Origin: Proteromonas lacertae
Lineage: Eukaryota
Assembly (NCBI GenBank): GCA_002245135.1
Contig: NGBS01001165.1
Coordinates: 186,001 to 250,000 of the forward strand
Length of the DNA: 64,000 nucleotides
Direction of reading: 5' to 3'
Positions 1 to 51,108 of the stretch are shown here, piece by piece. The notes under the pieces are model-generated. The model saw only the letters and a program-made list of their open reading frames with translations, did no database searches and was not told where the DNA came from. Both the position numbers and the translations under genes were made by a program. Within the stretch, counting starts at the first letter, position 1; the number at the start of each line of letters is the position of its first letter.

Positions 1-1187
1 CCATGACCATCAGCACCAAATCTTGCCTTGTGAGCACCAGTATATTGTGAACTATCAGTTAATTTGTCGAAAATGCTTCCCTTTGTCTTAGCATTTGTAC
101 CACTAGACATTGGACCAGCACTCTTTAAGATTTTAGCTTTAACTAATTCAAATCCTTCATCTGGTGATTTATCTGGGTGTAACTTCTCAGCAGCCATATA
201 AATAGCTTTTTCGAATTGTTCATAGGTAATTTTACGTTGTCCTTGTAATTTCACCTTTGAGAAGATCAAATCAACACCAGTTGCACTTAAAGCGCTGTTA
301 ATCAATTTACAATCTCTGAATAATTTAGCGAATTTAGCATTATCCATCTCTGGAGCAGCACCTCTAGCACCAAATGCACAGAAATTATTGAATGCATCTT
401 TCAATGAGTTAGCGCTTTCACCTACTGGCTTAGCTTTAGTAGCACTTGTTCTGGATGTTCTCTTTGGAGCTGGAGCAGCGGATGGACTTACAACTGTAGC
501 ATCAGCACCTGCAGCAACAGCTTGTGCTCCTGTAGCTGGTTCATAAGCAGTAGCAGCAGCAGCAGCACCTCCTTGTGGTGGTGGAGCAATACCTGGAGCA
601 GATTGGCAAACAGCAACTGATGAAGATGCAGCTGTGGCTGTTGGAATACCTTGAGCTTTTGGACCTAAGTTATTACGGGTAATTTGTGATAAATCAGAAA
701 TACCACCTGTATTATCAACACGACCAGCAGCACCCATACCATGACCACTTTCATCGAATCTTGATTTGTGAGCACCGGTATATAATGATGTATCTGTTAA
801 TTTATCTAAAATGCCACCTTGATCAGCTTTCACTGAGTTGGTTACTGGACCATGACCAGCACAAATAGCATTGATCAATTGGTTTTGAGCTTGTTCTGGA
901 TCAACTCCTGGATATTTCTTTGCAGCCATTTGTGGAATAGACTTGTTTAAGAATTCATTAAAACCGATTTTTCTCATTCCTGGAGCTTTTGATTTAGTAA
1001 AGATAAGATCAATATCAGTTTTTGTCAATTTCTTATCTAATATCTTTGTATCTCTTGCAAGCTATGGATTATAATCTAGATGTTGATATACCTTTGCGAA
1101 TTTTGCATTATCTAATTGATTATCACCACCGCCTCCTGCACCAAAACTAGCGAAGCCAATGAAGATTTGTTGAAGCTGTTGTTCCAT
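1..1187 (-). CDS. TPPP/p25-alpha family protein with at least two tandem p25-alpha domains (3' end runs off the window)
   Basis: ATG at 1187, 30-nt intron 1062-1091. Manual translation: MEQQLQQIFIGFASFG...LDNAKFAK|LARDTKILDKKLTKTDIDLIFTKSK...LTDTSLYTGAHKSRFDESGHGMGAAGR. An Ala/Pro linker follows, then a second copy: MDNAKFAKLFRDCKLI...VDLIFSKVK...LTDSSQYTGAHKARFGADGHG. These are the p25-alpha signature motifs. Missing from the ORF track. Confidence 0.9.
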
Positions 1188-1649
1188 TTTTTAGATACGA
1201 TTAATTAGCCAATCAAATAATTTCTAGAAAGTAACGACTTTTAACCGAAAGATGTCAAATACGATTGTAATGATTGTAAAGCACATGTCACGATTGTTTA
1301 TCGATTGTTAATTCTATGCATCAGTTATACATTATAAACAAATCATTCGATGAAAATGTTAAGAATAAATGATGTAATGTGATTACTTTCTTGTTATACA
1401 AGGACATTTGATTTTGTTATGTATAGTTTTTCTGATTAATCTGAATGAAGTTATTGTTTTATATTATTTTTGATGTAGGAAGTATTTAATCCTATTGCAG
1501 CATTTCAAATTGATTTTGCATTTCGAGAAGAATGAGTTAATAGAAATAATTGTGATAAAAGTATCTAGATAATAACATTTCTGTTTTTAGATCCATAAAA
1601 AAAAGCATTCAATCTTATATTTAGAGAAATAAATAACATAGATTATCAA

Positions 1650-4600
1650 TTAATGATTACTAGGAGAGTTTTCTGGATATACTCTACTACGATTCATAAA
1701 TAATATGCTTCTACTAATACTCTTCTTTGATAAATCTGTATTGATAATTAATTTTGAAGTTTTTGATACATATATCCCATAGAATTTGGGTAAAACACTA
1801 AGTTAAAGTTACTACACAATAACAATAATATAATAAAAAAGATATGCATAGACATTATAGTTTGAAGAATTCCTAAAACAGTTAATCCAATTGAACAAAC
1901 GTAACTCTTCACTATCACATCATCAGTTATTTGACCAATGAAAAAAATAGTTATTATAACAACCAGTACAAAATAGGAATTAAGAAAAACATCTTTCAAT
2001 TGAACAATAACTGCAAAAAAAAAGATATAAGTTGCAGTTCCAACATAACAAATTTGTTTTGATTCAAAGTATTTTGTGTCAGTGTTCTTTACACTATATA
2101 AAACTATAAACAGAAGAATGGATGTAATTATTATCAATATCCATGTGATATAACTATATTATAAAAATAAATATATGAATCTTACTAATATATTTGATTA
2201 ACTTGACAATAAGAGAATAATGTCAATTCTAAAAAGGATGAATTATTTTCATATGTTTTCTCTACACTTCTATTCACACAATATAAATACAGCAAATATA
2301 TATACAGAGGAGGTTTAACCACTAACCATATTATCATATATATTCCTCCAATTGTCATAGTAATACAAAAACCTCTTATAACACTTTTCATTAAAAATGG
2401 TAACTATTTATAATAAAATATAGTTAAATATATACAGATTTTAATCCAGTTCCATTTATAGTTAAAAACCAGTTTATTTTTGATTCAAATATTGCAAATA
2501 TTAAACTGAATGTAATTAAAAGAAGAACTTCTCTTATATAACAAACTGGAGAGAATGTATGTGGAGTAATTATATTTGTAAATCCTGTTGTTATTGCGAT
2601 TTCTGAAGCTATAATTGTTAAAATACAATAAGAAATATTTGCTTTTCTTATAATTGATTGCCTTCGGTTTATTCTCAATAAAACAATGATTATGATATTG
2701 ATAAGTGTAACAATAGCAATTAATGCATAATAAATGACTTTATATTCCAAAGCCAAATCATAATAAACTGTTTTCCTACCAAAATATTCTTCAATATTAT
2801 TTGGTATAATCTCCATAGTTGTTAATGAAAATAGTTTCTTAAAATCTGTCATTATACCAACTGCTAAAGGTATTTTTATTAAATTATTATCCAGTATCTC
2901 ATAATTACCAAGTGTGGATGAAAATGAATGGTTATAAACGGCTAAACGAAGAATATCACCTCCACATTTATCACCTGCTTCAATATGTAATTCTGAATAG
3001 CATTTTTCATACATTCTCATTATTACATCTACTAATAAATAAGCATGATAAGCTTTCTCATCTCCAGTTAAAATATTATTTGAAAATTGAGTAATTAATG
3101 CTGAAAATGGATTTGACATTATTTCACTCATGTAAATCAAACACAAATAACATTTGACTTAATTCTGCAGTATATGGTTGTATTTCATTATATGTTTGTC
3201 TGTAGAATATGATTCTTGAACTATCATGTTGACAACCAGCATCTTTATATGAAGATAAGATATATGGAATTGATTCACTTCTCATTGTATTAATAACTAT
3301 TAATAACATATAAAAGAGGTTAAAACATACTCATAAATCTTTCGCCTTTACTTGTCAAATCTCTTAATGTTGAAACTATAGTTGGTGTTATTTCATCATA
3401 ATATTTAAACACAAATCTCTTAATTATACTAATTCCATCTTTATTTAGTTTCTGAATCATATAATCTAAAAATGGTTCAGCATTGAAATGATGAATTAAA
3501 GATTCAAAATTACATATACAAAAAAAAAGATATAAATATTTATCGTCTTTCATTTCTAAAGTTACATAAATATTAAAACTGAACTTGTAAAACAAATACT
3601 TTGTAATCTGATACAAATGATCTTCATTATATGAAAAAGAAATAAAATTACTCTGAATTATTTTGTTTGAAGAAAAATCATCAATATGAATAAATAAAAC
3701 ATTTGTATCTGAATAGTCTTTAAAATTATACAAATCTCTTGTTGGACAGAACAATAAACATAACGAAACTCTATTCAAAGATCTAAGAAATTTCAATCCA
3801 TCATTAATCTCATTTCCATCTGTATAAGAATATACAATTGTTTTAAATGTAACATTGGATAAAATATCAGGTATAATATACTGATTCTTTGTTACAAATC
3901 TTCTCATAAATGCATGATATACTCCTGTATAATTGTTTTGAGAATCAATAAGTATTTTGTATATAATAAATATTGGTATTGTTGGAACTTCAATTCTATC
4001 TAATGGATTTGAAGGATTACTAAAATCACAAGTGATTATTGGATTATCATCATTATCAATTGTTGCAGAATCCATTAAAGTGTCTATCAAGTATTCTATT
4101 CTATTTTTATTATTAATAAACTTGCTAATTATTATAGGTCTTGTTACATGATGATCATATTCTAACATTACTGACGAATAAGGAGTTAATATCATTGTTT
4201 GAACTTCTTTTAATATTTCATCAGTCTCAAACACTGTTGCTTTTGTCACACAAGTTTTCCATAAGTTTATAGTAACATACGAATTATACATTACATCTGT
4301 TATATGTCTTTTTCCATAACAATTATTATACTCTGTTTGAAATTGTTTCAATTGTGTTAAAGAGTTATTCACAAATGAATATCTCTTTATTGTATCAAGA
4401 GAAGTTAGTTCTTCTACAAATACTGAAGTAAATATAGTATTATTTAATAGGTATCTATCTTTTTCTTCTACACTATATGGATATATATCAGTAATAACTT
4501 TAATATCACTTTCATTAACGAATTTACTAACCTTTTCTAAAACTGATTTTGGATTTGTTAAACATTGTCCCATCATCACAGCGACTGCAATATTTGCATT

Positions 4601-7600
4601 TGTATTATTACCAACTACTTTTAAAGCATTATCCAATGTGAAGTTATTATTTTTTATAGAGAAGAATATACAATTAAAATGTTCAACTATTCTTACTCTT
4701 TTCCCACAATAATCCTTATAACCATTATACGAAGCAAAATCATCAATATTAACATATAGCAACACAGAAGAAATTGAATTCAGTTGATAGAAGTTTTCAA
4801 TAACATCATATGTTTGGAGAGGATATGAACCAGTGTAAATAATATTTCTTTTACATTCATTCCCTTCATAATTTGGTAAATACCACATTAGTTTATTATA
4901 TTTTTCAAACAATGGATATATTGCTTTTCTTTCTATACTATTTATATACACAAAATAACCAATTACATTTTCATCTTTAAAATAGTCTTCAATTTCATCT
5001 ACTTCAATAAATATCGATTTGATAAAAAACCCAATCAATCCACCTTTATCATTTATTCTTTTCAATGCTAAAGTAATTCCTCTAAACACTTCTCTCTCTT
5101 TCTCACTAATATCAATAAATTCATCCTTGAAAACTATTGCTACAGTTTTAGTATCTTGAGTTCTTATCAAACCATTTCTATAATCAACATATATGTATTG
5201 CTTTGAATCATTTGTAAAGCCATAAGGATTAATAACTGTTGTATCAGGGTTTACTACCAACATTTCTTCCTCATTTGTCATATTAACAACAGACACTGGA
5301 TAAAGAAGATAATTTGTTGTTGAAATACTATAAGTAGTGTAAGATGTTTTGATGTTTACTTTATATAGTTCCTTCACTAACTTTGATTTACTATACTCAC
5401 TATTATCTGTTTTTAATGTTATATGATATGCCTGTAAAAACATATTCATCATAATAAACAACGAAAACTGTTTTCTCTGTAATATTCTTGATCCAAATAC
5501 ATCAACGTGTATCTTTTCATAATTATCATATTCCATAATATTAGATAAATCATATTCTTCTACATTCAATATTTCTTTAGTCAAAGATTTAACTCCATGA
5601 TTCTTTGCATAATAAAATACACTTGACTTCAATCTGTTTAGAATTACAGTAATTAAATAGATATTCTGTTTGTGTTATATCCAAATACGAATAATAATGA
5701 ATATTCTTTTCCTTAAACCCATTATTCTTATTACAATTAATTCTCAAATATTCATCCATCTCTTTTCCCATCAGAAAAACTGTAATAATTAATATTTCCT
5801 CAAACGAATCTAAATAATCAGATATTTCTTGAATAGACTTACTTCCATCATAATATACTTCTTCTTTATTAAGACAGTATGAACTAGTATACTCATAGAT
5901 TAACTTTGTAGTTAACCTTTGTGGATATAGTAAATAAACACATCTAGTATTAGATGGATAAGTTGATTTTATATAATTGAAAAAGGGACATAATAACTGT
6001 GTTACCAATCCACCAGAATAAAAGATTGACGTAGAATTTGTAGATGAAGGAGTAGTAATAAATGGGAAAATTAATAGTTTATCAGATTGTTCTATCACAT
6101 CTCTTACCATATTCAACTGGCCTAATGAATTACCACCAACTATTATTATTACTTCAGGATTATTCACTAGTTCCACAACCTTTTTTCTAAATGATTCATC
6201 ATCACTTTCTGAATCTAATACCATATAATCCAAACAAACTTTATCTAAATAATTATAGAATAAATAATATGTAAATAAATATACATGTCTTACAATAAAA
6301 ATCAATTGCAGATATAGCTATTAATATATGACTAATCTCTAAATTGGAATATTTTCCAGATACTGAACCAACTAATCCTATTTTCTTTCTACCACGACAT
6401 TTATAATAATTTCTAATATCTTCATATTCGTAACTGCAATGACATCCATTATGCTCTGGATATATCCACAACAATCTGAATGCTTTAATAGCTATATTAG
6501 AGACAGAATATAATTGCATCTCTCTATTGTATTTATCAATCCTTATTTCATTTACTACTGTTGACATTTGCCTTTCATCATTAAAATATGAATATGAATC
6601 AATCTCTATTTCATTTTCTTTCATATAATTAGATATAACTCCTAAATCAAACGATTTTACTGTATGAACTACTGTAAACCATCTATAATATGTTAAGTAT
6701 CCAGATAAAACAGATCCTTCAAGTGCGATATTATATGTCATCTTATAGTTCATTTCCTCATTAGAATCATATTCAGTTGGAACTTCAGTTGAGTATATAT
6801 ATTCAAATGGATTAAGAATCATTATAACTTAAATACTTATAAAATGGTACATATATTGGATAATTCACTCTATCTAATTCATTCAGTACTTCCAATAAAT
6901 CTATCTGGTATAAACAAAATGATGATTAAAGAATGATCACTAAAAGCTTTGATTCTTTCTAAGTAAAAATAATGATCATCTGTTGAATTATATTGTAATT
7001 CTAATAATGCAGCACCAACATAGTTATAATAATTTCTTATGTATATCATAAAATCTTCATATCTTTTATTGTATATAACAACAGCACTAAAGAAATCATT
7101 AAACATAAAATAGTTGAATGAAGCTTTAAAGTATTGATTCATTGATAATCCTGAATTAATTACATTTAAAGAACAAGTTCCTTCTATTGAATTAGCAGAC
7201 CAAATTAACAAATTATTATCTTCTGCATATGGTATAAATGTGTCTAAACAAACCTTTGAATTACATCCGAATATACCAACAATAGTATAATTCTGTAAAA
7301 GATTATTTAAATCTTTGTAACCTTTATCTTTATCATATTCCTTATTAAACACAATTTCATAATGTAAAATTTTCTTATTCAATACAGGAATTTCGCTTCT
7401 AAATTTGGATAATAATCCTATTGTAAATTCTTCATAATAAAACATATATTCATCTATTACAACAATTGCAATTTTGGTTTTTTCAAGTATCATTTCTTCA
7501 GCATACATACATCTTTGAAATGATGGTTCATACGAGGTTATACTATCAGGAAATATCATTTTTACTGATGAAATATATAATACATCATGATTATATATTT

Positions 7601-10600
7601 CTTTTAGATAATACTTCTTTGTAATCAAATGATTCTTTAGCATCATCATTTCACCAGTTGGTGTATCTATAAGCTTATCAAACGGAAATACACCATCTGG
7701 AATGAAATATTCAAACACAATATAAGCTAATGTCATTGACACTGATAGATGAGAGGAAGTTGTTATTCCTTTTATTCTATTATTCTTTCCATAACCTGGA
7801 ACAAAACCCATTTCATTTTTATTATATGGAGATGATCCTATGTAATAAATGTTGTGATGATAGTTTTCCTCAATTCTGTCAGAGGAATCATTATCAAGAT
7901 TGATAAGTATATATTTATTTAAAGCAGCAGGAGTTCCTGTAATTAACTGATATAATTTCTGTTTTATTGATGAAGAAAATGAAAAATATATTAATACACA
8001 TTTATCACTATTTTTACATTTTTCAGTGATATAACTAGATATAAAAATCCAACCACTTTTTGATTCAAATATATATACACTTCCTTTTATAAAGTATGTA
8101 TCGAAGTTTTTCTTTAATATATCAGCATATACATCATACAAATATATGCTTTTATCCATTAAAGCAATGGTCATTTCATATCTTCTGTAATATATGAAAT
8201 GATACAACAATGTCAGTTCTTGAATATAGACATTACCAATGAAATAGATGTTATTAAAACAATCAATTCCATGTGCATGAAAACTTGATAATAAAAATAC
8301 ATTAGTACCATCTAAGACAGATTGTATTGCTTTTAATCCACCAATTAATGGATGTCCACCTAATATAATCTCCACTTTTTCAGATAATAAGTATTCTATA
8401 TCTTTCTTTATCTCCTCAGCATCATTAGACAATCCTCTAACTATCAATCTATATTCTATAGATGCATTGTTTGTAGCTCTATATATTTCAAAAGTTTTAA
8501 AGATTATTGAAGGTGTGTCGAGGTAGTCTAAGAACAAATAGGGATTAATTATTCCAACTGAAACATATCTATCATATGTTGCATTAAAAACACATTCAGA
8601 ATACGTATATACAGTGTGAATATAAACAGTAGGAATTAGTATTATTGAGTATCTTTGAGGAAGTTGATTTCCTTCATATAAATGAGAATAGAAATAACTC
8701 AATTTACTGTGATGGTGATGATCAATACTGAATTCATTATTACTTACTGTTATATTCTTATTAACCATTTCATACTTATAATTATCAGAATAATCCATAT
8801 GACATTCAACTATTAGTCTTGATATTAAATATGAAAGATATGAAAAAGTTGAAAGAATATATTTTTTACCTTTAGAATCATTATTATTCTGACTATAACC
8901 TGATATTTGATTTATATATTTTACCAAATTCTCATTTCTATCATCTTTTACCAATGAAGTCATATAATCAAAATCACTCAACTCTTTTTCATTGAAATAC
9001 TTGGATAAATAATATAAGCTAGATAATGTGAAATACTGAAATGAATAAGGAAGCCTGCTGTTATAAACCATTATATTATCATAGATATATCTTGTAAACA
9101 AATATCTTTCTTTGTTTTGTATAGAAAAATCCACTATTGATCCACCATTCATCAAAGCATATCGTATATTATTAACAACTTTATAATAATCATCTGATGT
9201 AGAATTATCATATACTATTGAATATTTTATTGAATCTAATCCATATGTTGTAGTGTAACGATTAAAAGCGTTTAACAAATCTATTCCAATATCACTTAAA
9301 TCAAATATAAAATAAGATTCATCTAAATTATTAAAATGTTCTTGATAGGTTGATAATATATCTACGTAACTTGGTCCAATATAAAAAACAAGTGTATGAC
9401 AAACATCTATTTGGGTAAAGCCGATATTGAAGAAAGGAAGTGAATATGACTCTAACAATGGAACGATTTGATTTATCAACATACTATTCAGATTACCAAT
9501 TATTGCAATCATTGATTTATCATTCTTTATCCTTTCTTCAATTCCATTGTACAAATCTTCATCATTTTCTACATGAAGAGAGATAAATCTCTAAAATAAT
9601 ATAAAAAATATATATACATAATATGAATGATCTATTTTAATATTTATTTGATCAAGTGCTGCTAATATTCCTACCATTTCAGATCCATCTGAATCACTCA
9701 TCTCTGATTGAATAAATAGAATTGTAAAATATTTCCTTGATTCCATACACTGAGTATTTGAGAATGACAAATTACATAATTTCACTTCTGTTTGAGTGAA
9801 TGTAGGTAGAGATGTACCATTTAATGAATAGTTACCTTTGTATACCACAATTGTATTATTTCTATCAATATTTGTTCTATTCAATACTGAATATGTATCA
9901 ATATAATGATTTGAATTTAACACTAATCCAAATTCTTCCATTGAATCAATATCCACATGTTGAATTGATTCTAGCAATAAAAATAATGTTGTACTATTAA
10001 CATAATAACAATAACATATTATTATACATAATATAAGGACTGCCATCTTCAATAGGATAATCTATTCTCACTTTACTATCGGCTGAATAAATTGCATTGA
10101 CAAACATGTTTGAAAACTTACCTGATTTTTCTCCAACAATTATATCATTTTTGAAATGATGTAATTTCTTCAGTATTTGGTATTCATTTAAATACATATG
10201 GAACTTTGATATACTGTATAGACTTTCATCATTATATAATTCTTCTGTATCATGAATATTCAATATATTCACTATAAAGTCACACTTGTTCTTAATGCTA
10301 TTTCTTATAGTATCTTTATCTGATTCTTCCTTCTTAAAGTAATATATCTTTATCAGCGAATTAAGAAGTGGATTTGTTTGAAAAAAATTATATGTATATT
10401 CTGTTGAAACATCATTTTCTTTTCCTATTATACAAATATTCTTTGCTCCAATTGAAAATAAATAACTATTAACTCCAAATAGTATTTGGGATAATGTTCT
10501 TTCAAGTTGATAATATTTTCTATCACATATCATTCCAACTGATATTCCTACATTATAGAATGTGATATTTGTTGTTTTGATTATTTCAAACACATCGTTA

Positions 10601-11071
10601 AGAATATTATCATTGAATAATCATTAAGAAAACAAAAAATAAATACTTAAAAAAAAAACACAAAAAACAAAAAAAAAGATATGAAATACTTGCCATAATT
10701 CTAGCAATATTCTTCTTCTTTGAATCTTCAATAACATTTTTATAACAATTATAATCTTCTAAATCACATTCATAAAATATAAACTGGAAATCACTGATTA
10801 GTGTAGGGAAAAATGTGATATGAAGATAATTTGTTAGATATTGATAGAAGGATTCGAATTCTTTTATTCTTTCTTCTACAACAAATGCGATTCTTTGCAT
10901 ATAAATGTCATTATCTAAGTAATAACAATTATTAAAATATATATTTTATACATTCTTCATTAATTGCAGTACATGTCAAAACATGACCATCACCAATTGT
11001 CACTCTATCATCAGAAGAATAAATTGGTATTAAAGATCTTTCAACCATCTCAGAATTGATAATCTATTCCC

Positions 11072-11103
<32 letters not shown>

Positions 11104-13472
11104 AATAGAAAGAATTCTGTATATTTACTCAAATTGTCAGTAATTGAAGTTTCTTGATAGACAGAAATATCTTGAAAAACAACCTGTCTTAAACATCTAT
11201 TGAATAATTAAAACAATATTAATATATACTTAGTATAAATGGATGGATATCTACTTCCACATCCTTGAATTGCTGTTGTATAAGATAGAAAGCTTTGATA
11301 TGATAATATAAATTCATTGTTGAAATTTGCTGATAATAAAAACTCACTCATTTCGTTCTTTAACTCTTCAGATATCATTTCAGGAGTTATTGTAGTTACT
11401 AAATAGCTTTTTGGATACTATTATATTATATAAATAATAACATAAAATTCTATAATACATATTGATTTGGATCTATCACTATTTTCTTAAAAATTATATG
11501 GTATTGAGATGAAAAGAATATGTATTTAATCTTATGAAAATATGATCCACAATAATTGATGTTTGAAAAAACTTTATCAACACACTCTTGAGCTATAAAT
11601 ACAAGGTTATAAATATCAAAATTGGGTAAAGCACAAATATCATCTATTACTTTATTTCCATCACATAAATCTAATAGTTTTATTTCATTAAACACATCAC
11701 TATTATCTTTAATTAATATCTTCATTTCTTCAGTATAATAAAACGGATGAACATAAACTATTGTTCTTTGTTCATAAGCTCTTACTCTTCTCATAAAAAA
11801 AGTGATTGTTTTTGCCATAGATATAATTCCATAATTAAAAAATGTAATTGAATCTTCACAATTGAATCTAATTTGTACTTTATAATTAAAGAAGTGAATG
11901 CTATTTCCTTTCAAAACTATTAATAAATAAAGAGTAAAATATTAAAAAGAATAATACATGGAAATAACAGAGTATTAACTGTATCATTAAACTCCCCAAA
12001 GATTGTATGAATGTCATATTTTGCAGTTATATCATATAGCTAATTATATTATAATAACAGAAATAAAGAATACTTTATGAAAAAAATTATCATCAGTTTC
12101 TTCACAAAATATATGTAATACAAAATATGTATTTTCAATTTTCTATAATGAAAAGATAAATACAAATATATATCTTATACTTCTGTATTATAACTATCAA
12201 TTACAGCATCCATACCATTAACTATCTGTTGTCTACTTAACGAACAGTATGGTCCATAATCAACAAACAGTATATGCTCAAATACATATGGATAAGGTAA
12301 AGAATAACTCATTAATTCTTTAAAACTTACAGCATTTGGATGATAGAACCTTGGATCAATATTCATAGCATATCTACCATCATAATCTATAATAATATAT
12401 AAACTACTGTCATAAGTTAATAAAAACATTCTTCCTATTGCATTACCTGCTTCTGTCAGCATATATTCATATTCTGGTGTTTTATATACATCAAGTCTAA
12501 ATCTTTGAAGAATTTTTGGTTTTGTGAATTTAGCTTTTTTAACTATCTTTAACCAATACTTTGATGTATAATATACAAAATACATTTCATCTGTAATAAT
12601 AATATCATTGTATCCTTCTTTCTTATATAGTTTACTGAAACTTGATTCAACCTCATTACTCTCTTCATAATAATAGGTAACTACACTATGCCTTTGTAAT
12701 TCATTTGGATGAGTGTAGAATGTATAATAAGTTGAACTGAGTAATGATAGGAATTGATAATCATTATTTAGATTAGATATAACTGTAAGTACTTCTGGTG
12801 TAAAATCTATTGGTTCTAAAACTGAAAAAATCTTGTGAATTGAAGATGAAGAAGATGATCCAAAATTGAAATTTGTATTATTTGAATAAAGGAAAGTATA
12901 TTCTCTTCTTTTTACTAAATCATATTCATCTATTCTTGATAAAAATTCAAGTACTTTGTCAGTGTAAGGCGAAGATTTTGATGGAAACAAAAATGCAATA
13001 TCTTCTTCATCATTCACTTGAAACAACACTATAATAGATTATATATACTAAATTATATACAAAATATCAATTTCGATAAAAATAAACCATTTGATATAAA
13101 TGGACTGTTTGGATATAAATTTAAATCAAACGGATTTATAATCACAGATATATTTTGGTTAGTATAATTGTAATATGACTCATAACATTTAACTGATATA
13201 CCTGTAAATATCAATGAATATTCTTTATCCAATAATTTGTTCATCTCTTCTCCACATGTATTTGGATTTTGATATACAACATCATCTACTATAAAATTAA
13301 AATAATCTTCGTATGATTCATCTTTAAATGCTAAATGAACTGATCTAGAGATTAAAATGTCTTCAGGATTGGACGGAGAGTATAATATTCCTATATGTAT
13401 ATCTTTAATAGCGCTACAAACAGTAAATGTGATTAAAATAATAAATAAATGAATATTGGATGATATATTCAT
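1650..13472 (-). CDS. Giant class C GPCR-like receptor: signal peptide + ~9 tandem type-1 periplasmic-binding (AmiC/UrtA-like Venus flytrap) domains + 7TM_3 domain
   Basis: The minus-strand ORFs from 13472 to 1748 join through short GT-AG introns (e.g. 13029-13060); a few junctions need a 1-nt correction. UrtA/AmiC-like motif: GITLALKRINDKGGLIG...SIERKAIYPLFEKYNKLMWYLPNYEGNECKRNIIYTGSYP. Class C 7TM motifs: RRQSIIRKANISYC, CYIREVLLLITFSLIFAIFESKI, YFESKQI and spliced VLPKFY. Stop at 1650-1652. Confidence 0.8.
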
Positions 13473-15875: not shown

Positions 15876-18800
15876 ATGGGCATTGGTGGATCAAAACCAA
15901 GTAAAGAAGATATAATAAAAGTGTATGGTAATTGTAATGGAAATATTTTGGATTTCGTAAAATATGTGGTTGATGATAAAGAATCAGACTTGATATCAAT
16001 AGATAGTTTTGTTATACTTTATGATTTTCTTTTGGAAATACATGAGTTTTTAAAGATTAAAGAGCTTTATAAATTAGTTACTGAATTAATTGACAAAAAC
16101 TTTAAGTATAAATTATATAATTATTAATTCATAGTAATGTAACTATTGGCAGTTTAGTGGAAATTATATACAAAGTTTTACACATCTCCTGTTTTATCTC
16201 CTTCTGAATTAACTCAATCGTTTGATTTGCTGTTTAAAATCAAGGAAAAAGATGAAAGTATGTTTAAAGAATTGATGAAGCTGGTAGCTTATCACTTTCC
16301 ATCACTCTCTAATCCAGTTATCAATGAAGATGGATAATCCAGTTACTTTAAATGGAAGATTTAAATATGAAGTAATAGAATCTCTAAATCCAAATGGTAT
16401 TTATATTAATACAAACGATAATAAACAATACAGTGTTACTAATGAGATTAAACCTATAGAAAGATATCATAGTGTTATTGATGGTGGAATGAGTATATTT
16501 TATAAGAATCTATATTATTTTGAATGTGAAAATAACAATAGTGTATAATTTATATAATATTCTTCATTCTACATAGTCGTTGAGATATGTTTTGGTTAAT
16601 GATGATTATCTGTTTATAACAGAGAAGAAAAACGATTATAAGTTAGCTGAAAGAGTGAATAAAAGTTATAATAGATTGAGATACAATGAAAATGAAATAA
16701 TGTCAAGAGACATGTTGACTTTGAGCTGCATGAAAATGCAAAGAGATAAAATACCTCTAAACAATGATATATATATTACATTTTTATTAGTATTGGAAGA
16801 ATGTGAAGAGGAAATAGAAGATGATAATGGTTTATTGATATTGAAAATAGGAAACAATGAATTGTATTACAAAAATCATGAAGTTGAAGTGAATAATAAT
16901 AATGTAGGAAGAGAAATAGAATTGGTTAATGTTGATAAACCACTTTATAGAATAAATATCTTAACAGATTTGTATGAATCAATTGAAATAAGTGGTGAAT
17001 GTAATGTTGGAAAGAATTGTAAATGCTGTGTAGGTGAATTAAGAATATTTGAAAAAGATACAATGATAAATGATTATATATTCAGTTTACCAATAATTGG
17101 AAAAGATTTAATCGATGAAAATGATATGAAGTTAAAAATAATTAATGATGTAAAAATGATGAATAGTGAAATTCACAGAAATATGTTATTGAAAGAAAGT
17201 GAGAGTATTTATAATTATGAAGATAGATATTATATAAATAAAAGAGAAATAGAAATGAGTTCTGATAAAAAATGCAGTGTAAAAATGAAGATTATAATAG
17301 AAAAAGAATGGAAAGAATTAAAGATAGTTATTGGTGTATATTAATGATTATTTCTTGTTATATAATAGAAAAATCACATTGATAAAAGATTAAATGTCAT
17401 AAGTAAAGAATCACAGAAGAAAGAATGTGTTATAATATTCAACCAACAGAAAAACCATTTTCAAATATGGAAAAATAATAAAATGTTATGTCAGGTAAGT
17501 GCGATATTAAATGAGATAGTATAAATATGAATTATTGTGAATAGTTAAACCTCGAAATTAATCCTGAATCTATAAGAATTAATTGTATGAAAGATAATGA
17601 ATCAAAGTTTGATAAATTTCAATATAATTTAGAGATAGAAAAAGCAAAGAATATAATATTGTTTACTGAGAGAAAGAATGTATTGAAAGATTATGAATTG
17701 GAAATAGAAGGGATGAACGATTGTAAGATGGAAGAAAACATATTCATTTACAATACAGAATCTGGTCCACACTCAATAATACTAACAAATATATCTTTTT
17801 ATCATTATAATAATATTATTATTTTCTTTAATGAAATATAAAAGTCAGAAACAGTTAATCATCAAGTCATAAATATAATAGATGAAAATAATAATGTCTC
17901 ATCTTTTAGAGATAAAAATGGGAAGGAATACAGAATTTATAAAGGAATAGATATAGAAGATGTTAGTTTAAATGTAGAAGTTGGAATGATTATTGAAAAG
18001 ATAGATAAATTTGGTAATAGACACAAATATGAAAGAGTTAATTTTAATGTTAATCAGAGAAGTGAGAATTTATATTTCAAGAGTAATTGGACAGTTGAAC
18101 AACTTGTTTTATTCTCATATATATCAATGAAAGATATTCTTCCTATACCTAATGATGAATATAGTAAAAGATATAAAGAATTCTATAACTCACTTGAATA
18201 TGACAATATCTATTTATCAAATAAATACAATTCTAACGTTAATCCATATGATATTTTTCACAAAATTCTTGTAGATAATGATATTTCTCACCAACCATTT
18301 GTATATAAATTGACAAATGATTCTAAATGCTTGAAATGTAACAAAGTCAATACTACTAAAGTTGAAATGGATCATATCACATTATCACATACTTATTATA
18401 AACCTATTTATGCTTTTAGAAAAATTGATAAGAATGATCATAAAAATGAAGATGAAGAAATAGTTTTTTGTGAAATGAATGGCAATGAAATTCAATCATA
18501 CTATGTTATTAATAGAAAAAAAGGATATAAACCAATTACTGGTTTATATATTATTAGAAATGATGATGGAAATTGTGAATGTTTTGAAATAGATGGTGTA
18601 TAGATTATTATTTATTTAATATAATAGACTAAAGTTGGTATAATTAGAAATGGGAAATCAGTTGTTACTAACATCTTGATAGTTCCAAATCTAGAATGTT
18701 ATAAAATACCGCCAAATTATAAACCTCTTCATCTAAAGAATTATAAAATATTAGTTCAAAAAGTAGCTATTGATTGTAATGGAAATAAATATGCTTTTGA

Positions 18801-29915: not shown

Positions 29916-32900
29916 CTTTGTGATAAATATTTTAAAATGTAAATGATTTAAGTACAAAGTCTCCTTTAAGATCAAAACATACTCTATATATATTCTTTTC
30001 AAATTCACAATTATAGTAATATATGTTAACACTACCAGTCTGTTTTTTACCATTTACTAAATATTCCTTTTCGTTATTCTCTTTTTTTATTACTTTTATT
30101 TCTTCTATTCCTTTAAAATGTGCTGCAAAAATTGAATCATTTGATTGATGTAGAATAGTGCTTCCTTTAGATGAAACAAAAATATAATGAAAATCTGGCC
30201 AGCCAAATAAAATGTTCAAATGTATCATACATTCTTTTACTATATCATCACATTCACTTGAATGTGATTCATTATTAACTATGTGAATAAAACAATTATT
30301 CAACATATATATCATTTCTCTGTTCTTACCACTAGCAAAATGAAGTAAATATATTCCTTCATTGTTTTCAGTCATATTATTCTTTTTAGTGGAATATATA
30401 TCTTCATCGAATAATTTCTTAAATTCTTCAAATCTATTTTGTTCTATTTCTTTTAATATAATACCACTGTAGCTTTGTAATTTATCACCATTATATAAAA
30501 TATTGTACCATACTAATTCTCCAAATAATAATTCAAACAATTGAAGATTGTTTCCTTTTCATAAATGTCTTTATATATTTGTTGAATTGCTTCTATATCA
30601 TCTTTTCCAGCTTTATGTTTCACACAATCATAAATAAAATCAAATATATCATCAGAAATAAATTCCATCTCATATTCATTTATTCTATCAAAATATTTCT
30701 GCTTATTCTCTTCATCTTTATATGGAATTGAATATTTCACTATATAATGACATAATGTACTATCAAATGTATTTATTAATTTTGATATTCTATCATTTTC
30801 AGTTTTATTTGGATATAAATAGGTCATTAGAAATTCCATATAACCAAGATTACCAACTATTCTCTTTATACCATTGGTATATAATTCTTTCCAGTAATCT
30901 TTACCATAACATTCTTTATATATTGATACATAATAAATATGTCTTGGAACATTTCCATATCTACTATTAAACCCCTTTGCTGTATTTATTAAATCAGGAT
31001 GTAAACAGTTGTCTTCCCATTCTTCAATTTCATTTTTACTAAATACATCCATATAATAGAAGATTTTCACACAGTTTTCATTAAAAAATGCTTCATAGTT
31101 TTTGTAATCTGGCGATGCAATATATAATATTATATGAGATTCTGCCATATTTTTATCAACGTTATATGAATCAGATATTGATATATCATATTTCTTTCCT
31201 CCCTTACCTTCAACCACTTTCGAACCAGCTAAATGATATGCATTATAGCAGGGATATTCAGTTTTACTTTTAAATATATTTGTTCTGATTGGATCATCAA
31301 TACTAACTCCTAATTCAATTATTTTCATCAATAAGAATATAATGAAGGATGTTTTACCACATCCTGGATTTCCTCTTAATAAAAAACTGATCAAATTATT
31401 CACTCCAAATTCGTCTTTCTTTCTTTGTAATGCTGTTTGTAGTTTATGTATGTTATAATTCAATCCTTTTTCTACATTGCCTATTATTCTATTTAATTTC
31501 ATTCCATTATGTTTATTTAATTCATCGATTATTTTGTTGCTAACCTCTTTAATATGTCCTAATTCTTCATTGGTAGGTGATTTATGTTCCATAATATACT
31601 TTTTTAATGAATCTTTTTGATCTCTTAATTTAACTAATAGAATATATTTCTTCAATTCATTCCATATTTCTCTATAAACAGTTCTGATATATACTTTTTG
31701 TATAGGATACTGAAATATATTACAATCAATTTTTATAGTTTTATCATCAAAATAGTATGGACTTACATCTCCAAAAACTTTACACAGAGCATTACTAGCT
31801 ATAATAATATTACAATATAAACATATATATATGTATATACTTGTACGGCTTTTACAATATTCTGGTAAATCATTCAAAATTAATTGTAATGTCTTGAATC
31901 CTTTTTTATACTCATATTTATATTTATCTAGTTCCTTATTATCGATTTGTTTTTCAATTAATTCTTTAATTTGCTTTACTTCATTATTTTTCATATCTAG
32001 TGTTACTATTTTATCAATTCGTTCATACTCCTTCTTAATTATTTCTTTTATTGTTAGCACATCTTTATCATTAACATCATTTTCTATTATATCAACGACA
32101 TTTGGATCATCGATTATTTTGTCAAATATTTCATAATTATATATTATATCATCATTCTTATTATCATTTGATTGAAATAGCATAATCGAATCTTCTGAAT
32201 AATAACAATGCAATAAACTTTGAATCCCTTCAGATGTTAAATAATTATGCAAATTGCCTCTATTGATAGGATAATTAAAATATCTAAGTCTTTTAGATTT
32301 AATTGATATTATATTCTCTCTTGGATCATCTATTTTGCTTTTCTTTTCAGTTGGTTTTTCATTTTTATCAGGCTGTGCAGATGATGCTTTTCTTTTAGAT
32401 CTTACAGGCTGACTTGATTTGCTTATTGATACAAGAGGTTTATCCCAACAATAATAATGTTCAATCTCTTCTTTCATTTTTATACTTAATTTTTCTCCAT
32501 AATGGCCAAATTCTGTTTCACCAATTTCATAAGACAGCTCAACATCTTCTTGATCATATAATATAAAAACTATGTTAAATATTGGGTTACATTTGTTTAA
32601 TTCATTAATTATATCATTTTTATTTATATCTTTCATATTTAATTCTTTAGATATTTCCTATAATTAATATTGATATATTAATATACACTAATAATTTCAT
32701 TTTTTATTTTTTCTCTTTCTCTTTTTCTTTCTTTTTCTTTATCTTTATCTTTATTCAAGCCGTTGTATTTTACATCGATCAAATAGTCTTCTAGATCATG
32801 CAATACATCATTATTTAAGTTTTCTTTTACTGTTTCATTTGCTTGTTTAATATTATATAAACTCACTATTTGTAGTTGGTATTGAAGTAATACTAATTGG

Positions 32901-35900
32901 TAATTCAATAAATGCAATTCTGATTCTGATTTTGTAGTTTCTAAGTCGGATGAGAAGCCTTCATAATAAGAATTCAAATCACTTTTTTTATCATCAGTTA
33001 ATAATGGTGTGTGTATCAGATTTTCTAATGCTATTAACCTACATGGTTGGTTATGTAATGTTTCTACTAAGTTTACTAATAATTGTAACGGTTGTCTTTG
33101 TAATTCTATTAATGACTCTTGTAAAAATTGTAGTTCGTTAGGTTTATTTTTAAATTCCTGAAACATATTCACTAATGATGTTAATTGTGAAGGTTGGATT
33201 TGCAATATCTCCATTAAATTTAATATATTATCAAACTGTGATGATGATTCTTGAAATGCTGCTATTAAGCTCTGTAAATAATGTAGTGGTGCTTGGTTTT
33301 GTAATGCTTCTATTAAATCATTTAATTCACTTAGTTGTTTCTGGTTTTGTGATGCATTTAATAGCCTACAAAAAGCTGTTAATTGATGTGGTTCATTATG
33401 AAATTTTTCTACAAAATTATGAAATGTTGTCAAAAGATTTGGTTGATTTTGAAATGCTTGAATTAATTCTTCTAATGATTTCAAATCTAGATTCTTTTGT
33501 AATGTTTCTATTAATTTCTGATTTGATAATGATTCTTTCTGAGCTTTTAATTTATTTATTAAATCTTGTGTTTCATTAAGATATTGTTCTGCTTCAAATA
33601 TATTTAACTCTTTTTCTGAACCTGGTGGTAGTTTCAATAGTAATTCTTTCTCACTTTCTAATTTATTTACTAACTCCTGTAAGTTATCTATTAATTCCTG
33701 CAATTCATTTACAAATGATTGGTTTCTGCAATTTTTCTATTAAGTATTGTAATTGATTTAGATCTTCACGATTTTCAAATATTTTCATTGAATTTTGTAA
33801 TAATTGCAGTTGTGATTGATTCTGTAATGTTTGAATTAAATTTTGCAATTCAATTACATATGATTGATTATATAATTTTCCTATTAACTCCTGTAATGCT
33901 TTTAATTGCGATTGTGATTCTTTCTGATCTTGTAATTTTTGTAATACATTCAATAATCTTATCAATTGCGGTTGGTTTTGTAAAAATTGTGATAGGTCCA
34001 ATATTTCTACTTGTGTTTCCTTTAATTCAACTTCTTGTTGGGGCTTTAATGAATTCATAAATATTTCTAATTCCGTTGATAGTTCTTCAGGTAGAGTAAA
34101 CTTTGATGCTATTACTATACTCTTTAACATTTCTAAGTGTGATTTTGGCTATACTTTGTAAATTTTGTATTGATTGATGAAATAGTTTTAATTCTTTATG
34201 TGGTTGTTTTTCTAATAATTTCATAAATTTTAGTAATTCAATAAATACTGGTTGATGTATATGATTTTGCATCGTTTGTATATCTATTAAAAATGATTCA
34301 AACTGTGATGATGTTAAACTATGTAGTAATTGTAATATTTGTAATTGATTATTTGATTGTTTCATTTGCTCCAATAATTCTACTTGTAATTTCTTTATAC
34401 TCTCTACGATTGTCATTATTCTAGTGATTATTATATTTACTAAACTTTTTGATGCCTTTGATAGACTATGATATATTATTAGTAATCATGGTAACTCTTC
34501 TACAATAATTTTATCTACTATATTTTCTAATGTAAGTAATTCTACTATTATTCTATAATCTTCACACTTTATCTTGGGATTTTCTGCAATTATTGATTCT
34601 AATCTGTTTTCTATATCATTCAATTGTCTATCTAATACGTTAAACATTTCATCATCTTTTTTATTATTACCTGCTATACAATTCAATTGTGTTTTCAATT
34701 TATTATATTCAATCATATCCCTATCTAGCTTATGAAATTGTATCATTCTCTTTTCACCATATAAATTAATCAAATCATCTTTAATAGAAATATCGACATC
34801 TCTTCTATACTTAACCACATTAATTAAAAACTATAAAAAGAATAAATAATACAAATATATACATATGTCTCACATAATGTTCTTATTCTTCCATCCATCT
34901 GTAATATGTAGTTTCTTTTTAATTTATTTGGTATATAACCATTTTGGTAAAGTGATGAGATTAATATCTTTTTATCTTCTTCTTCATTATCAATAGTAAG
35001 ACTTTTTAAATAGTCCAATTATAGCTGTTTTATGATAGTTATAAAGCATCTATATAATAATAAAATAAATATTTATACCTCTAACAAAGCTATTACATTA
35101 TGCTTAACAGAGTGTGTTTTATCTTTTGTCATTTGAACAGCAGTTATGTTGAATTTGTTAATAATACATCCATCAATACAGGGGAAATTAGATCTTTCAC
35201 TAAAATCTAAATATAATCCATCTACTTCTTCAGTAATTAATGTAAGATCTTCTCTTTTCTTTCTTATATACCTTTCATTTGAATCTAAATATTTTAATAT
35301 ATTATCCATTTTCTCTAAATAGCACTTATTTGTTGGAAGATATAGAAAATCATAACTATTGAAGTTCAAATCTTTATAATTACAACTACTATTTGACAAT
35401 ATTATATGAATCAACCTCTCAAATATCTTTCCATCATTATCTTTCATAAACATATCATGTAATTCTTTATAATTCTCTTGAGTTATGAAGTAATTACCTA
35501 TTATGCAATTCTTTATTTCATCAGATTTAAATACTAATCGATCTGGTATATCATTTATTCTTTTTGCATCATAAATATAACAATTTTCATTATATTCTGG
35601 TGGTATGTATGACGGCAATCTACCTTTCTTTAGCATCAAACTTTAAATATTTATCTAATTCCTCTATATCACCTGCATGTTGTAAATTATATCCATAATT
35701 GACACACTTTGTTAGTAATTTTTTAAATTCTTCTTTTGTTCTATGAACTAAATTTTCTTTATCCACATTATAAACAATCTTTACTAACTCAGCATAACTA
35801 AAAAGAGGTATGTAAAACTGAATTGGAGCTCTTTTGTTACTCATTACTTTGTATTTATCTGCTTTGGGAGAACTTATCATAATTACTACATTATCATCAC

Positions 35901-36713
35901 TATAATCATCTTCTTTAATCTCACAATTATCACTTATAATAATACTTTTTCCTTTTGTCTCTGGTAATTTTTCAGAAGCGTAATATTCTTTACCATTACC
36001 TTCTCGAAAATAATACTTTACTTCATTATATACTTCACCAACAATGATTACATTGTAGTCTTTAAAATCTTTATCTTTATTAAAGCAATAGGCTAAAACC
36101 ATGCATAAACTTGTTTTACCTGTGCCTTCATTTCCATAAATTAAAAAACACTTCTGAGGTTGAAATTTAATAGTTGCAGAGGTTGTACTACCACTTTTGA
36201 CAGAGGATTTGTTTTTAAGTGAATGACATATTTGCGATAGCGGGGAAGATAATGTATGTATCGGTAATACAGGAACTGCAATGATTCTTTTAATCTCACT
36301 ATAAATACCAACATAACAATCTCTCACAAGAATGTAAGGGTTCTTTATATAATATTTATTCCGTTTTTCTTTTATCATCTGCATCTCATTTATATCATCA
36401 TAATCGACATATCTATGATAAAGACTCATTATTAAAAACAAAAATGATTCTTTGATAATCAAACAATGAAGATGTTCAGTAATCAGAATCAATAAACACA
36501 AACTATATCAAGCTAATCAAAGAGTATTTTTTTCTTTTATATAATATCTAATTGAAGATATATATCTTCTTCATAACTCAAAAATAGAATTCAAATCAGG
36601 AAAGATTGATTTAAACTATTATCAAACTACATTCACTGGATATGAAGAAGATTTTAAGATTCTCAATATTTGTAAGCAAACTATAAATATTTAAGAAACA
36701 AAACTTAATAAAT
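29916..36713. mobile_element. Candidate inserted element carrying a Crinkler/RHS-type NTPase-REase gene, bounded by a direct repeat
   Basis: Bracketed by the 111-bp direct repeat. Its only cargo is a CR/RHS NTPase+REase gene. No TIRs, DDE transposase, integrase or RT recognised. Confidence 0.45.
29932..36429 (-). CDS. Crinkler/RHS-type protein: NTPase1-REase1-Q/L-rich helical repeats-NTPase2-degenerate REase2 (five 1-nt frameshifts; intact gene with assembly errors, or a young pseudogene)
   Basis: NTPase1: LVRDCY...LIYGNEGTGKTS...ISD...SSP..DKY...FYIPLFSYAEL. REase1: GKIFERLIH...NFPCIDG...QMTKDKTH. NTPase2: YIRTVY...LRGNPGCGKTS...ISDS...ASPDYKNY...YMDVFSKNEI...YGNVPRHI...FISDDI, then G..LFE. 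Exons are joined by 29-42 nt introns. Confidence 0.75.
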
Positions 36714-38635: not shown

Positions 38636-39840
38636 CTATCTATTCTTCAAAACTGGCATACTCTTCGTCTGACCAGGAACTTTAGGAAATTTCGTTGCAC
38701 TTTTCGTTGTTCCTAACAAAGAAGATTTTCTAGCTTCTTTAGTAGGAGATACAACAGGTGAAATAGATCTTTGATCTGCACCTATCTCATTACTATCACC
38801 AAACGCTTTCTGTAATAAGTCTTCTATTACTGGATCACCTATTGGAATGTGTTTCTTTGGCTTTCGAGGTATATAATCGATTTTCATTTGATCTATTTGT
38901 TTTCTTAAAGCAACATTCTCTCTTCTCAAATTATTCAATTCACTTAATAAAACCACATTTTGATTCAAACTCGATGTTGTGAAATTCTTGAATTTGATTT
39001 TGTTGATTTCTGCTTTATTTCTTGTCACTTTCAATTCTTTTTCTATGTGTTTTCTCTGTAATGCATATTCATCTAATAATTCATTTGTATCAGGTTTCGC
39101 TACATTCTTCTCTTTCAAATGACTCTTATAATCATCATACAACTTTATTAAACCATTCTTCCATTTCCCAGGATCTATTGTTGTTACTAATCTTTCTATA
39201 TCACTGATTAAGTAACATAAAGTATTTGTTAATTCATTTCTTTTATTTATACTTTCACTCAAACTTTCACTCAAATTTCGTATCTTAATTTCATAATCAG
39301 TTATTGTCTTTTCTCGATCACTAGCTACTTTTATATTTCGATTGAATTCTCGATCTAATTCACTCATTTGATCTTCTAATAAATCGATTCTTTCTTGTTT
39401 ATTATTCAATTCTTCTTTCGTTTCTTGTAGTTGATGTTGTAATACTTTTCTAGTTCGTTCTAATTCACTGATTCCATGTTGAGCTGTTGATAATTCTTCG
39501 ATCTTTTCATCTCTTAATCTTTTATCACTTTCAATTTCATCTTTTGCACTTTGTAATAATCGTTCTAATCGCTTTTTATTATTGATTTCTTGTAGTAATT
39601 GTTCGTTCAGTTGTTCACATTTATGTTCACTTCCTAATAATTGTTTTTGTGTATCTTGTACTGTTTTTCTCATTATTGCTAATTCACCTTTCGCTTTTAC
39701 TAGAGTATCTCTACTTTTGATTTGTTCATTGGCAATCTTGGCATTTAATTCTGTAACTACTTTGTCTTGATGACTTTCTAAATCTGCTAATATACCTTCA
39801 TATTCACTTTGTAAATTACTTGTAAATTCCTATTTAAAAA

Positions 39841-39891
<51 letters not shown>

Positions 39892-42800: not shown

Positions 42801-42915
42801 TTATTAAATGACGACCACTAGCATAAATTACACTTTTGTTTGAATTAAATTGAAGATGTTCACGTATATCTCTTCGGAACCCAAAACTGTGGAATAAATC
42901 AAAACTGTAATTCAT
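38636..42915 (-). CDS. CFAP57: Cilia- and flagella-associated protein 57 (WD40 repeats + long coiled coil)
   Basis: N-terminus HSFGFRRDIREHLQF...VIYASGRH. WD40 motifs HSGAITDMSLSLVKPLLVT...DKSLRMWNY, SVHPTG, GHSLRVNSL...SLDGAVYE, HHTPITAFTKSADSQFLFSGSQDG. Coiled coil ending NQNVVLLSELNNLRRE. Confidence 0.82.
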
Positions 42916-50869: not shown

Positions 50870-51108
50870 ATAGAACAAAATATAGAAGAAACAATCTAAT
50901 AAAGTTTGATTTTGGTTTGCTAAATTATTTTAAAAAATATGAATTTTCATTGTGCTGTGAAAGTGAAAATGCCAATATAATTATCAATACACAGTTTATA
51001 TAGTTTTAAAAGTATAAATAGTATTATATTTGCAGTATATAAGCAACATATGAAGATCTTCACATATACAGGTATTAATATAACACATGAACCGTTTAAT
51101 CAAATATT

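Follow-up and report, generated by a model that had tools for sequence, protein, structure and literature searches.

Nine UrtA-type Venus flytrap units ahead of a class C seven-transmembrane domain in a predicted giant receptor gene of Proteromonas lacertae

The DNA analysed here (the window) is a stretch of 64,000 nucleotides (nt) of Proteromonas lacertae contig NGBS01001165.1, AT-rich (~25% GC), gene-dense, and with short introns. An earlier note made from the letters alone (the sequence-only reading) had proposed that it encodes one giant G protein-coupled receptor (GPCR) of class C, an estimated ~3,700 amino acids (aa) long, with tandem Venus flytrap (VFT) domains. On the minus strand, from 13472 to 1650, we modelled a single gene whose 3,687-aa product is free of in-frame stops, an X marking each of 4 frame breaks. 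It comprises a predicted signal peptide, 9 UrtA-type VFT units, and a GABA-B-like class C seven-transmembrane (7TM) domain. The proposal of an unusual multi-VFT class C receptor was borne out by this model and by relatives that carry the same plan in single open reading frames (ORFs).

The receptor gene and its domains

The gene and its parts are listed below; TM1 to TM7 are the transmembrane helices.

1650..13472, minus strand, whole gene, giant class C GPCR: 3,687-aa model with 19 introns and 4 remaining frame breaks of one base each
13410..13472, minus strand, predicted signal peptide, judged by hydropathy and by eye
12282..13409, minus strand, VFT unit 1, no cysteine pair: 20.4 bits against a shuffle maximum of 4.2
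10903..12279, minus strand, VFT unit 2, the weakest, with 6 internal GT-AG introns and one at its end: 9.0 bits against 2.3
9740..10900, minus strand, VFT unit 3: 21.7 bits against 6.3
8573..9737, minus strand, VFT unit 4: 28.3 bits; Pfam Peripla_BP_6, E 3e-4
7484..8570, minus strand, VFT unit 5: 38.6 bits; hhalign over 295 columns, E 3e-4
6393..7481, minus strand, VFT unit 6, 2 frame breaks inside: 41.0 bits; Pfam Peripla_BP_5
5158..6390, minus strand, VFT unit 7, lacking a cysteine pair and containing one frame break: 67.0 bits; ortholog fragment P0001 72% identical
3985..5155, minus strand, VFT unit 8, the most UrtA-like, with 4 of 8 urea residues: lobe-1 cleft segment 39/41 identical to the ortholog
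2786..3982, minus strand, VFT unit 9, membrane-proximal, urea site wholly lost: short stalk to TM1, no cysteine-rich domain
1770..2785, minus strand, stalk and class C 7TM domain: 7 hydrophobic helices after splicing; cysteine pair, TM3 Lys, TM6 Glu, TM7 PK
1650..1769, minus strand, short cytoplasmic tail (~40 aa) and stop, from the spliced model

An ATG stands at 13472 with the hydrophobic leader that had been reported there, and the stop codon occupies 1652-1650. The ectodomain spans ~3,370 aa, and the spliced model carries 31 N-glycosylation sequons. All 9 domain-start strands named in the sequence-only reading fell within ~5 nt of their given positions. The ORFs do join into a single model, but GT-AG introns alone give no clean splice. 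Among the junctions that had been flagged as uncertain, ~10620 is modelled as an AT-AA intron resembling those of the minor spliceosome (U12-like), and the ~6860 and ~3137 areas contain single-base frame breaks (~6903, ~6817, and ~3126); the list had missed introns at 3533, 2028, and 1845 and a break at ~5627.

The 9 units are 353-399 aa each, share 9-17% mutual identity, and have no DNA repeat in common. On a profile built from the relatives' units, every one exceeded the best of 100 shuffles (9.0-182.8 bits versus at most 6.6), and Pfam scans of 15 single exons found Peripla_BP_5 in 3 of them (E 5.5e-22, 2.1e-8, and 2.2e-5). With a profile made from 40 single-domain hits only, 7 of the 9 units stood above shuffles and units 2 and 4 did not; unit 2 likewise went undetected by hhalign on one exon. 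A strong hhalign score for unit 9 was rejected as an artefact of an ortholog tail in the alignment.

Searched against Protein Data Bank (PDB) sequences, unit 8 matched UrtA structures first (E 3e-13) and then AmiC. Its structural model reached a predicted local distance difference test (pLDDT) score of 73.9, and the top 6 Foldseek matches were UrtA-type (TM-score 0.66-0.68), followed by AmiC, although the model was built on an UrtA alignment and the fold result is to that extent circular. The ANF domains of natriuretic receptors ranked far lower in the fold search. The units are therefore of UrtA/AmiC rather than ANF type, as had been claimed, judging by the best sequence and fold matches. The type I periplasmic-binding fold is assigned to unit 8 from the predicted model and to the other units from their profile matches. 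The C-x2-N motif described earlier as common to most units proved to be half of a cysteine pair, which is present in 6 of 9.

Seven hydropathy peaks occupy residues 3393-3617 of the spliced model, and the spliced 7TM scored 45 bits on a profile of 4 relatives; the relatives P0002 (130 bits) and P0083 (106 bits) pass the Pfam 7tm_3 cut-off. The residues diagnostic of class C (a cysteine pair, TM3 Lys, an acidic residue in TM6, and TM7 PK, as listed in the available text of PMC3727952) align with those of the relatives, with the cysteines in extracellular loops 1 and 2 and the acidic residue at the start of TM6. The TM7 PK becomes visible only once the 1845 intron is removed, by either of 2 splices. 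No match to NCD3G appeared in the Pfam scans, and the layout of mGluR, CaSR, and T1R, with one ANF VFT and a nine-cysteine domain, was not found.

Relatives and the urea site

A search with unit 8 among 1.84 billion representatives gave 439 matches at E <= 0.001. These were headed by P0001, which is 72% identical to the window receptor over 907 residues, and by P0002 (3,745 aa), which has 9 Peripla_BP_5 matches and a full 7tm_3. A second search brought in P0167 (4,080 aa), P0168 (3,909 aa), and P0169, a dinoflagellate protein that carries UrtA units in a different arrangement. P0002, P0167/P0170, and P0168 are single unbroken ORFs (3,745-4,080 aa), each with 9 units and a 7TM domain, the first unit being truncated in P0002 and one being split by an insert in P0167. 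P0083, P0113, and P0075 are fragments, the latter 2 from AT-rich-type relatives. The 7TM domain of P0002 was closest to GABA-B2 in the PDB (E 1e-17), with the mGluRs behind. The last unit leads into TM1 by a short stalk that has no cysteine-rich domain, in place of which P0167 has a Cys-rich insert. Nine UrtA-type units in one gene agree with the proposed tandem expansion of a prokaryote-like sensor, but that expansion is not private to this organism; 9 units recur in 3 distant relatives, which indicates an old family.

The relatives' units are 40-53% identical to Synechococcus UrtA. One P0002 unit aligned with residues 9-399 of 400 of Synechococcus UrtA (7s6e), tail included, and because the alignment runs to the last residues, the linker between units appears to be UrtA's own C-terminal tail. 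The cysteine pair occurs in 35 of 39 relatives' units and 6 of 9 window units, compared to 7 of 40 single-domain hits. In a quick tree of 74 rows, from which 18 of the 40 single-domain hits and all units under 280 aa were left out, the window units lay on branches of 2.3-5.1 (unit 8 and its ortholog on a stem of 2.24) and could not be placed. In a second, unrooted tree of 47 rows, with degenerate and window units omitted, the eukaryotic units joined 4 cyanobacterial rows and P0021 with 77% Shimodaira-Hasegawa-like approximate likelihood ratio test (SH-aLRT) support. Some units of P0002 and P0168 paired at 94-97% SH-aLRT in both trees and the P0167 units partly grouped together, suggesting an old array that was later reshuffled. 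Other bacteria are also 46-48% identical to Synechococcus P0049, and identity alone has no power to single out cyanobacteria. A cyanobacterial donor is suggested by the UrtA alignment with its tail, the cysteine pair, and the weak 77% grouping.

Further searches were less productive. Word-index searches gave no match when a window exon was compared with longer proteins, nor when the last unit and 7TM of P0002 were compared with shorter ones, both weak negatives. A JGI metagenome scan gave 66 pattern matches and no relatives. A prokaryote genome scan found none with P0167, and with P0049 it found 80 loci, nearly all of them Synechococcus/Prochlorococcus UrtA, as biased by the query. Other architectures were also seen: P0169 joins an UrtA-type domain to Cys-rich GCC2/3 repeats and a different membrane region; P0028, also from a dinoflagellate, has a single UrtA-type domain and a Thr-rich hydrophobic tail; P0021 (543 aa), which groups with the eukaryotic units, has N-terminal membrane helices and one UrtA domain with the cysteine pair; and in the bacterial P0003, P0004, and P0006, 2 intact UrtA domains flank HEAT repeats and a NACHT/STAND-like NTPase.

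The urea site of Prochlorococcus UrtA consists of W120, S122, Y141, Q144, E146, Y190, N246, and S274 in the available text of PMC10392092, and these residue numbers fall exactly on P0049. All 8 residues are kept in 20 of 25 aligned units of P0002 (5/9), P0167 (8/8 aligned), and P0168 (7/8); the ninth units of P0167 and P0168 lie outside this alignment and lacked the motif on inspection. The window units retain 0-4 of the 8, at most 1 of the 4 hydrogen-bonding ones, and the full site in 0 of 9, the alignment being good for unit 8 (W120, Q144, Y190, and N246 lost) and uncertain for the other divergent units. Units of P0113 and P0075 have 0-3 urea residues, with the full site in 0 of 8. The last unit is degenerate in all 5 relatives viewed. 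The lobe-1 cleft segment of unit 8 is 39/41 identical to the ortholog, compared to 72% overall. The earlier suggestion of amide sensing therefore found no support in the window copy, in which no unit exceeds 4/8 urea residues or 1/4 hydrogen-bonding ones. Since the relatives have the site that the window units lack, it fits the relatives better. From these residues, the relatives likely sense urea and the window copy likely senses something else.

Introns, frame breaks, and surroundings

The introns and breaks of the receptor gene are as follows.

2154..13060, minus strand, fifteen canonical GT-AG introns of 27-41 nt: donors 14 GTAT and 1 GTAA, acceptors all TAG
10613..10682, minus strand, U12-like intron of 70 nt with AT-AA ends: required to hold the frame, the alternatives with GT-AG being at least 121 nt
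3483..3533, minus strand, U12-like intron, AT-AA, 51 nt, in frame: similarity to ortholog P0001 ends at the donor
1966..2028, minus strand, U12-like intron, AT-AC, 63 nt: removal gives TM6 its class C length
1790..1845, minus strand, U12-like intron, AT-AC, 56 nt: removal opens the TM7 PK motif
6810..6910, minus strand, two single-base frame breaks ~90 nt apart: alternatively one atypical 62-nt GT-AG intron
5620..5635, minus strand, single-base frame break: P0001 runs through in one frame
3120..3140, minus strand, single-base frame break: alternatively an atypical 25-nt GT-AG intron

The U12 5' splice site consensus is RTATCCTT, or ATATCCTT. The 4 U12-like receptor introns begin with ATATCTTTT..., have AT-AC or AT-AA ends, and all carry the donor ATATCTTTTT, one mismatch away from RTATCCTT. 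A branch-box-like TTCTTAAT, TCTTTAAT, or CTTTAAC sits 10-13 nt before the AC or AA. At the 3533 site, the P0001 ORF matches up to the donor and then meets a stop in T-rich sequence just after it. For the 10682 intron, the AT-AA end scored highest among 11 in-frame ends on the unit profile, but not on the single-domain profile. Pairs of donor and branch motifs numbered 4 on the sense strand of the gene, compared to 0.32 in 500 shuffles (maximum 2). The strict motif occurred 7 times in the window versus 0.115 in the shuffled window; it was drawn from the receptor sites themselves, so it is the 3 matches outside the receptor that are independent of that gene, and all 3 lie on the coding strand and yield an open frame. 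No Rfam match was found within the 64-kb window. A transcript of this gene would require both spliceosomes, and gene finders would split the gene at the AT-AA and AT-AC introns.

A further 4 introns of U12-like kind, starting ATATC[AT]TTTT and carrying a branch box, with ends that are mostly AT-AA, lie in 2 other genes, at +17791-17841, +19523-~19567, -26021-25958, and -25827-25774; 3 of the 4 are required to keep frame. Together with those of the receptor they make 8 candidates, clustered in 3 genes. As GT-AG introns number some 60-65 on an approximate count, the candidates amount to about a tenth, in the small sample of one 64-kb window. Their bodies are unrelated, so they are not copies of one element. 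Two further candidates were rejected. At 5664, P0001 aligned better with a single-base break (528 versus 503-510 bits), and at 60439, in a kelch gene, an ordinary GT-AG intron overlaps the AT-AC candidate by eye. In animals and plants, the non-canonical end seen most often is AT-AA, according to the available text of PMC10639083. If genome-wide, this density of U12-like introns would be a finding in its own right.

Bridging the frame breaks with atypical GT-AG introns gave scores that were no better and lost conserved elements; the 62-nt alternative at 6810..6910 would remove a helix and a strand. Breaks are not confined to the receptor. An HCN/KCNH-like cyclic-nucleotide-gated channel gene (24850-22714, minus) has 3 of the same sign near 24262, 24027, and 23437, with HCN homology beginning right at 2 of the 3, and more occur near 16.3 kb and in genes at 30-36.5 kb. 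By our reading, the breaks found in the window number 12, of which 11 agree in sign, and every one falls within its first 36 kb.

The neighbouring genes include those for p25-alpha, a 2-oxoacid acyltransferase, the cyclic nucleotide-gated channel, and CCCH-YTH, LSM12, WD40, FANCD2, Memo, kelch, and BTB proteins. At 29930-36510 (minus), 2 adjacent broken genes with P-loop NTPase-like parts contain several frame breaks and an in-frame stop; Pfam AAA_23/nSTAND3 is weak in one, and these genes are perhaps Crinkler/RHS-like. A second seven-helix-type gene at 26400-24950 (minus), presumably GPR180/TMEM145-like, had no Pfam match on the one exon scanned. An intronless amidohydrolase-3 gene at 49241-50929 (minus; Pfam E 2e-84) looks bacterial and is a possible lateral transfer. 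A multi-domain p25-alpha (TPPP) gene occupies 3-1190 (minus) and a WD40/coiled-coil gene, which we assume to be CFAP57-like, occupies 38636-42915 (minus); together these 2 would point to a flagellated organism.

Interpretation and known systems

Any account of this gene has to accommodate the architecture, the unit count, the UrtA ancestry, and the urea residues lost here and retained in relatives, all of which are established at the level of sequence. The reading we prefer, with moderate confidence, is that a nine-unit, UrtA-derived VFT array on a GABA-B-like 7TM domain makes up a receptor that is likely intact. A bolder version, with a rough probability of 0.35, places the gene in an old family of class C GPCRs of ~400 kDa, so far undescribed and present in distant eukaryotes. 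Nine captured cyanobacterial-type UrtA domains, strung by their tails, would have formed a urea receptor with a dedicated non-binding proximal unit, and the window lineage would have become a multi-ligand sensor in a genome with minor-type introns at about one in ten. In the preferred reading, each unit would be a whole mature UrtA including its C-terminal tail. The 'QEC' and 'CDW' cysteines are predicted to form a disulfide, which would hold that tail so that it continues directly into the first strand of the next unit and makes the chain stiff. The outer units of the ancestral receptor would bind urea, with many sites providing avidity or a steeper response. The membrane-proximal unit, whose site is lost in every relative examined, may be a non-binding adaptor that relays closure to the 7TM; by analogy with GABA-B, this would probably take place in a dimer. 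In the AT-rich lineage, the units have diverged to 9-17% identity yet each would be under selection. The receptor has likely been retuned to small solutes of other kinds, and unit 8 is the one most likely to hold a live cleft for binding.

Several results, along with the partial circularity of the unit-8 model, weigh against the preferred reading. Alignment of exon pieces by hhalign was weak for units 1-4, and a model of units 4-6 from 11 sequences reached only pLDDT 37. The proposed class C 7TM is upheld by its 7 helices and diagnostic residues, but the conserved Arg at the cytoplasmic end of TM3, present in the 4 profile relatives, is Trp in the window; the window exon, which covers TM1-3 only, falls short of the curated Pfam 7tm_3 cut-off (E 9.8e-6, 25.8 bits versus 33.5); and that exon alone had no PDB match at E < 0.1. 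Splice alternatives differ by only 1-5 bits on the profiles. At TM7, a 56-nt GT-AG intron (1853-1798) with an atypical donor also opens the PK and scores 2 bits above the AT-AC. In the sequence as given, one base must be skipped at each of the 4 breaks, and of the 15 other gene regions looked at in the window, 10 (~22 kb) are free of breaks.

That break-free state at first favoured decay of the receptor gene. The nine-VFT receptor family would then be real, but the window copy would be a member inactivated not long ago, as a pseudogene or null allele, with 4 breaks in 11.8 kb, one of them proven against the ortholog, beside many clean neighbours. We consider this unlikely, because there are no nonsense codons in 3,687 codons, conservation relative to the ortholog is uniform (62-90% in each 50-aa stretch), each receptor break fits a short base run, and the breaks share one sign in 11 of 12 cases, all within the first 36 kb and 3 of them in the conserved HCN-like gene. 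Same-sign breaks in an unrelated gene make assembly error likelier than decay, and a stretch of insertion-type consensus errors is quite likely the best explanation. The shared sign across several genes could also reflect programmed +1 ribosomal frameshifts or RNA editing sites, but this is extremely unlikely: the breaks have no common motif, several shifts fall 25-36 nt ahead of the stop when placed by homology, the ortholog (72% identical) is unshifted at the corresponding position, and none occurs among the genes examined at 38-64 kb. The breaks and odd junctions could instead mark 2 or more genes, such as secreted multi-VFT proteins and a shorter receptor, with stops made by polyadenylation as in Blastocystis (available text of PMC5608401). 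That too is very unlikely, given that the junctions all lie inside units with no spacer, start, or second signal peptide, that single-ORF relatives have the same length and plan, and that the Blastocystis-like polyadenylation motif TGTTTGTT is rare, occurring only twice in 64 kb compared to about once per 3 kb in 3 Blastocystis genomes (same source). Judged from the sequence evidence, the gene is probably an intact, expressed cell-surface receptor whose 4 breaks are likely assembly errors.

A different question is what the array does. The missing urea site in all 9 units, the retained fold-holding cysteine pair, the 31 sequons, and the badly eroded lobe-2 motifs would suit a long structural rod that has no small ligand in this lineage and serves as a tether, adhesion element, or mechanical antenna, its class C 7TM being either constitutive or gated by mechanical force. 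This seems doubtful, as conservation in the unit-8 cleft segment far exceeds that elsewhere, the pattern expected for a binding site, and the relatives retain intact sites. The array bears on class C receptors generally. These are understood as having one flytrap per protomer, and a conserved nine-flytrap chain raises the matter of how distant closure reaches the membrane. Sites that are intact, partly lost, and fully lost form a natural series for testing, and the relatives offer urea as a directly testable ligand for a protist GPCR. Capture of a recent bacterial binding protein, still 40-53% identical, gives a second clear instance of the kind of fusion from which class C is proposed to have arisen.

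The U12-like introns of the window differ from the U12-type introns of Blastocystis ST1 in that their donor is ATATCTTTT and not the ATATCCTT consensus, and in that AT-AA outnumbers AT-AC. Both are short, AT-started introns in compact protist sequence, but 346 of 35,412 introns are U12-type in Blastocystis ST1, compared to about 1/10 in the window with 4 in a single gene (available text of PMC5608401 and PMC10639083).

A full-text literature search, covering main texts and not supplements (e.g., PMC12716839 Supplementary file 12 and the PMC5168858 domain tables) or subscription papers, found no multi-UrtA or tandem-VFT GPCR. The class C GPCRs of anaerobic gut fungi are likewise non-animal receptors that took up a bacterial binding domain, with ectodomains of at most 1,600 aa; their domains are type II sugar-binding or pectin-lyase, and the available text of PMC5168858 does not describe a nine-fold type I array. 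Entamoeba EhVFT is also a protist surface VFT of the bacterial PBP1 type, but it is a single domain, anchored by glycosylphosphatidylinositol, with no 7TM (available text of PMC12965686).

The UrtA proteins of cyanobacterial ABC transporters (PDB 7s6e, 7s6f, and 8hic), with AmiC (1pea), are the best matches and share the type I periplasmic-binding fold; the relatives also keep the 8 urea residues, the cysteine pair, and the C-terminal tail. In contrast to UrtA, a free or lipid-anchored transporter subunit, 9 copies are here fused to a GPCR in intron-bearing eukaryotic genes, with no transporter gene among the 35 window ORFs scanned, and the window copy has lost the urea residues. GABA-B (GABBR1/2) and the GABA-B-like class C GPCRs found in diatoms and in Dictyostelium (Grl family) share with this receptor the 7tm_3 domain, the cysteine pair, TM3 Lys, TM6 Glu, and TM7 PK (available text of PMC3727952). 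As in GABA-B, a short stalk that lacks a cysteine-rich domain connects the VFT to TM1, and the 7TM of P0002 is nearest to GABA-B2. GABA-B has one VFT of ANF type, whereas this receptor has 9 of UrtA type, and the window receptor further differs in its short tail and missing TM3 Arg.

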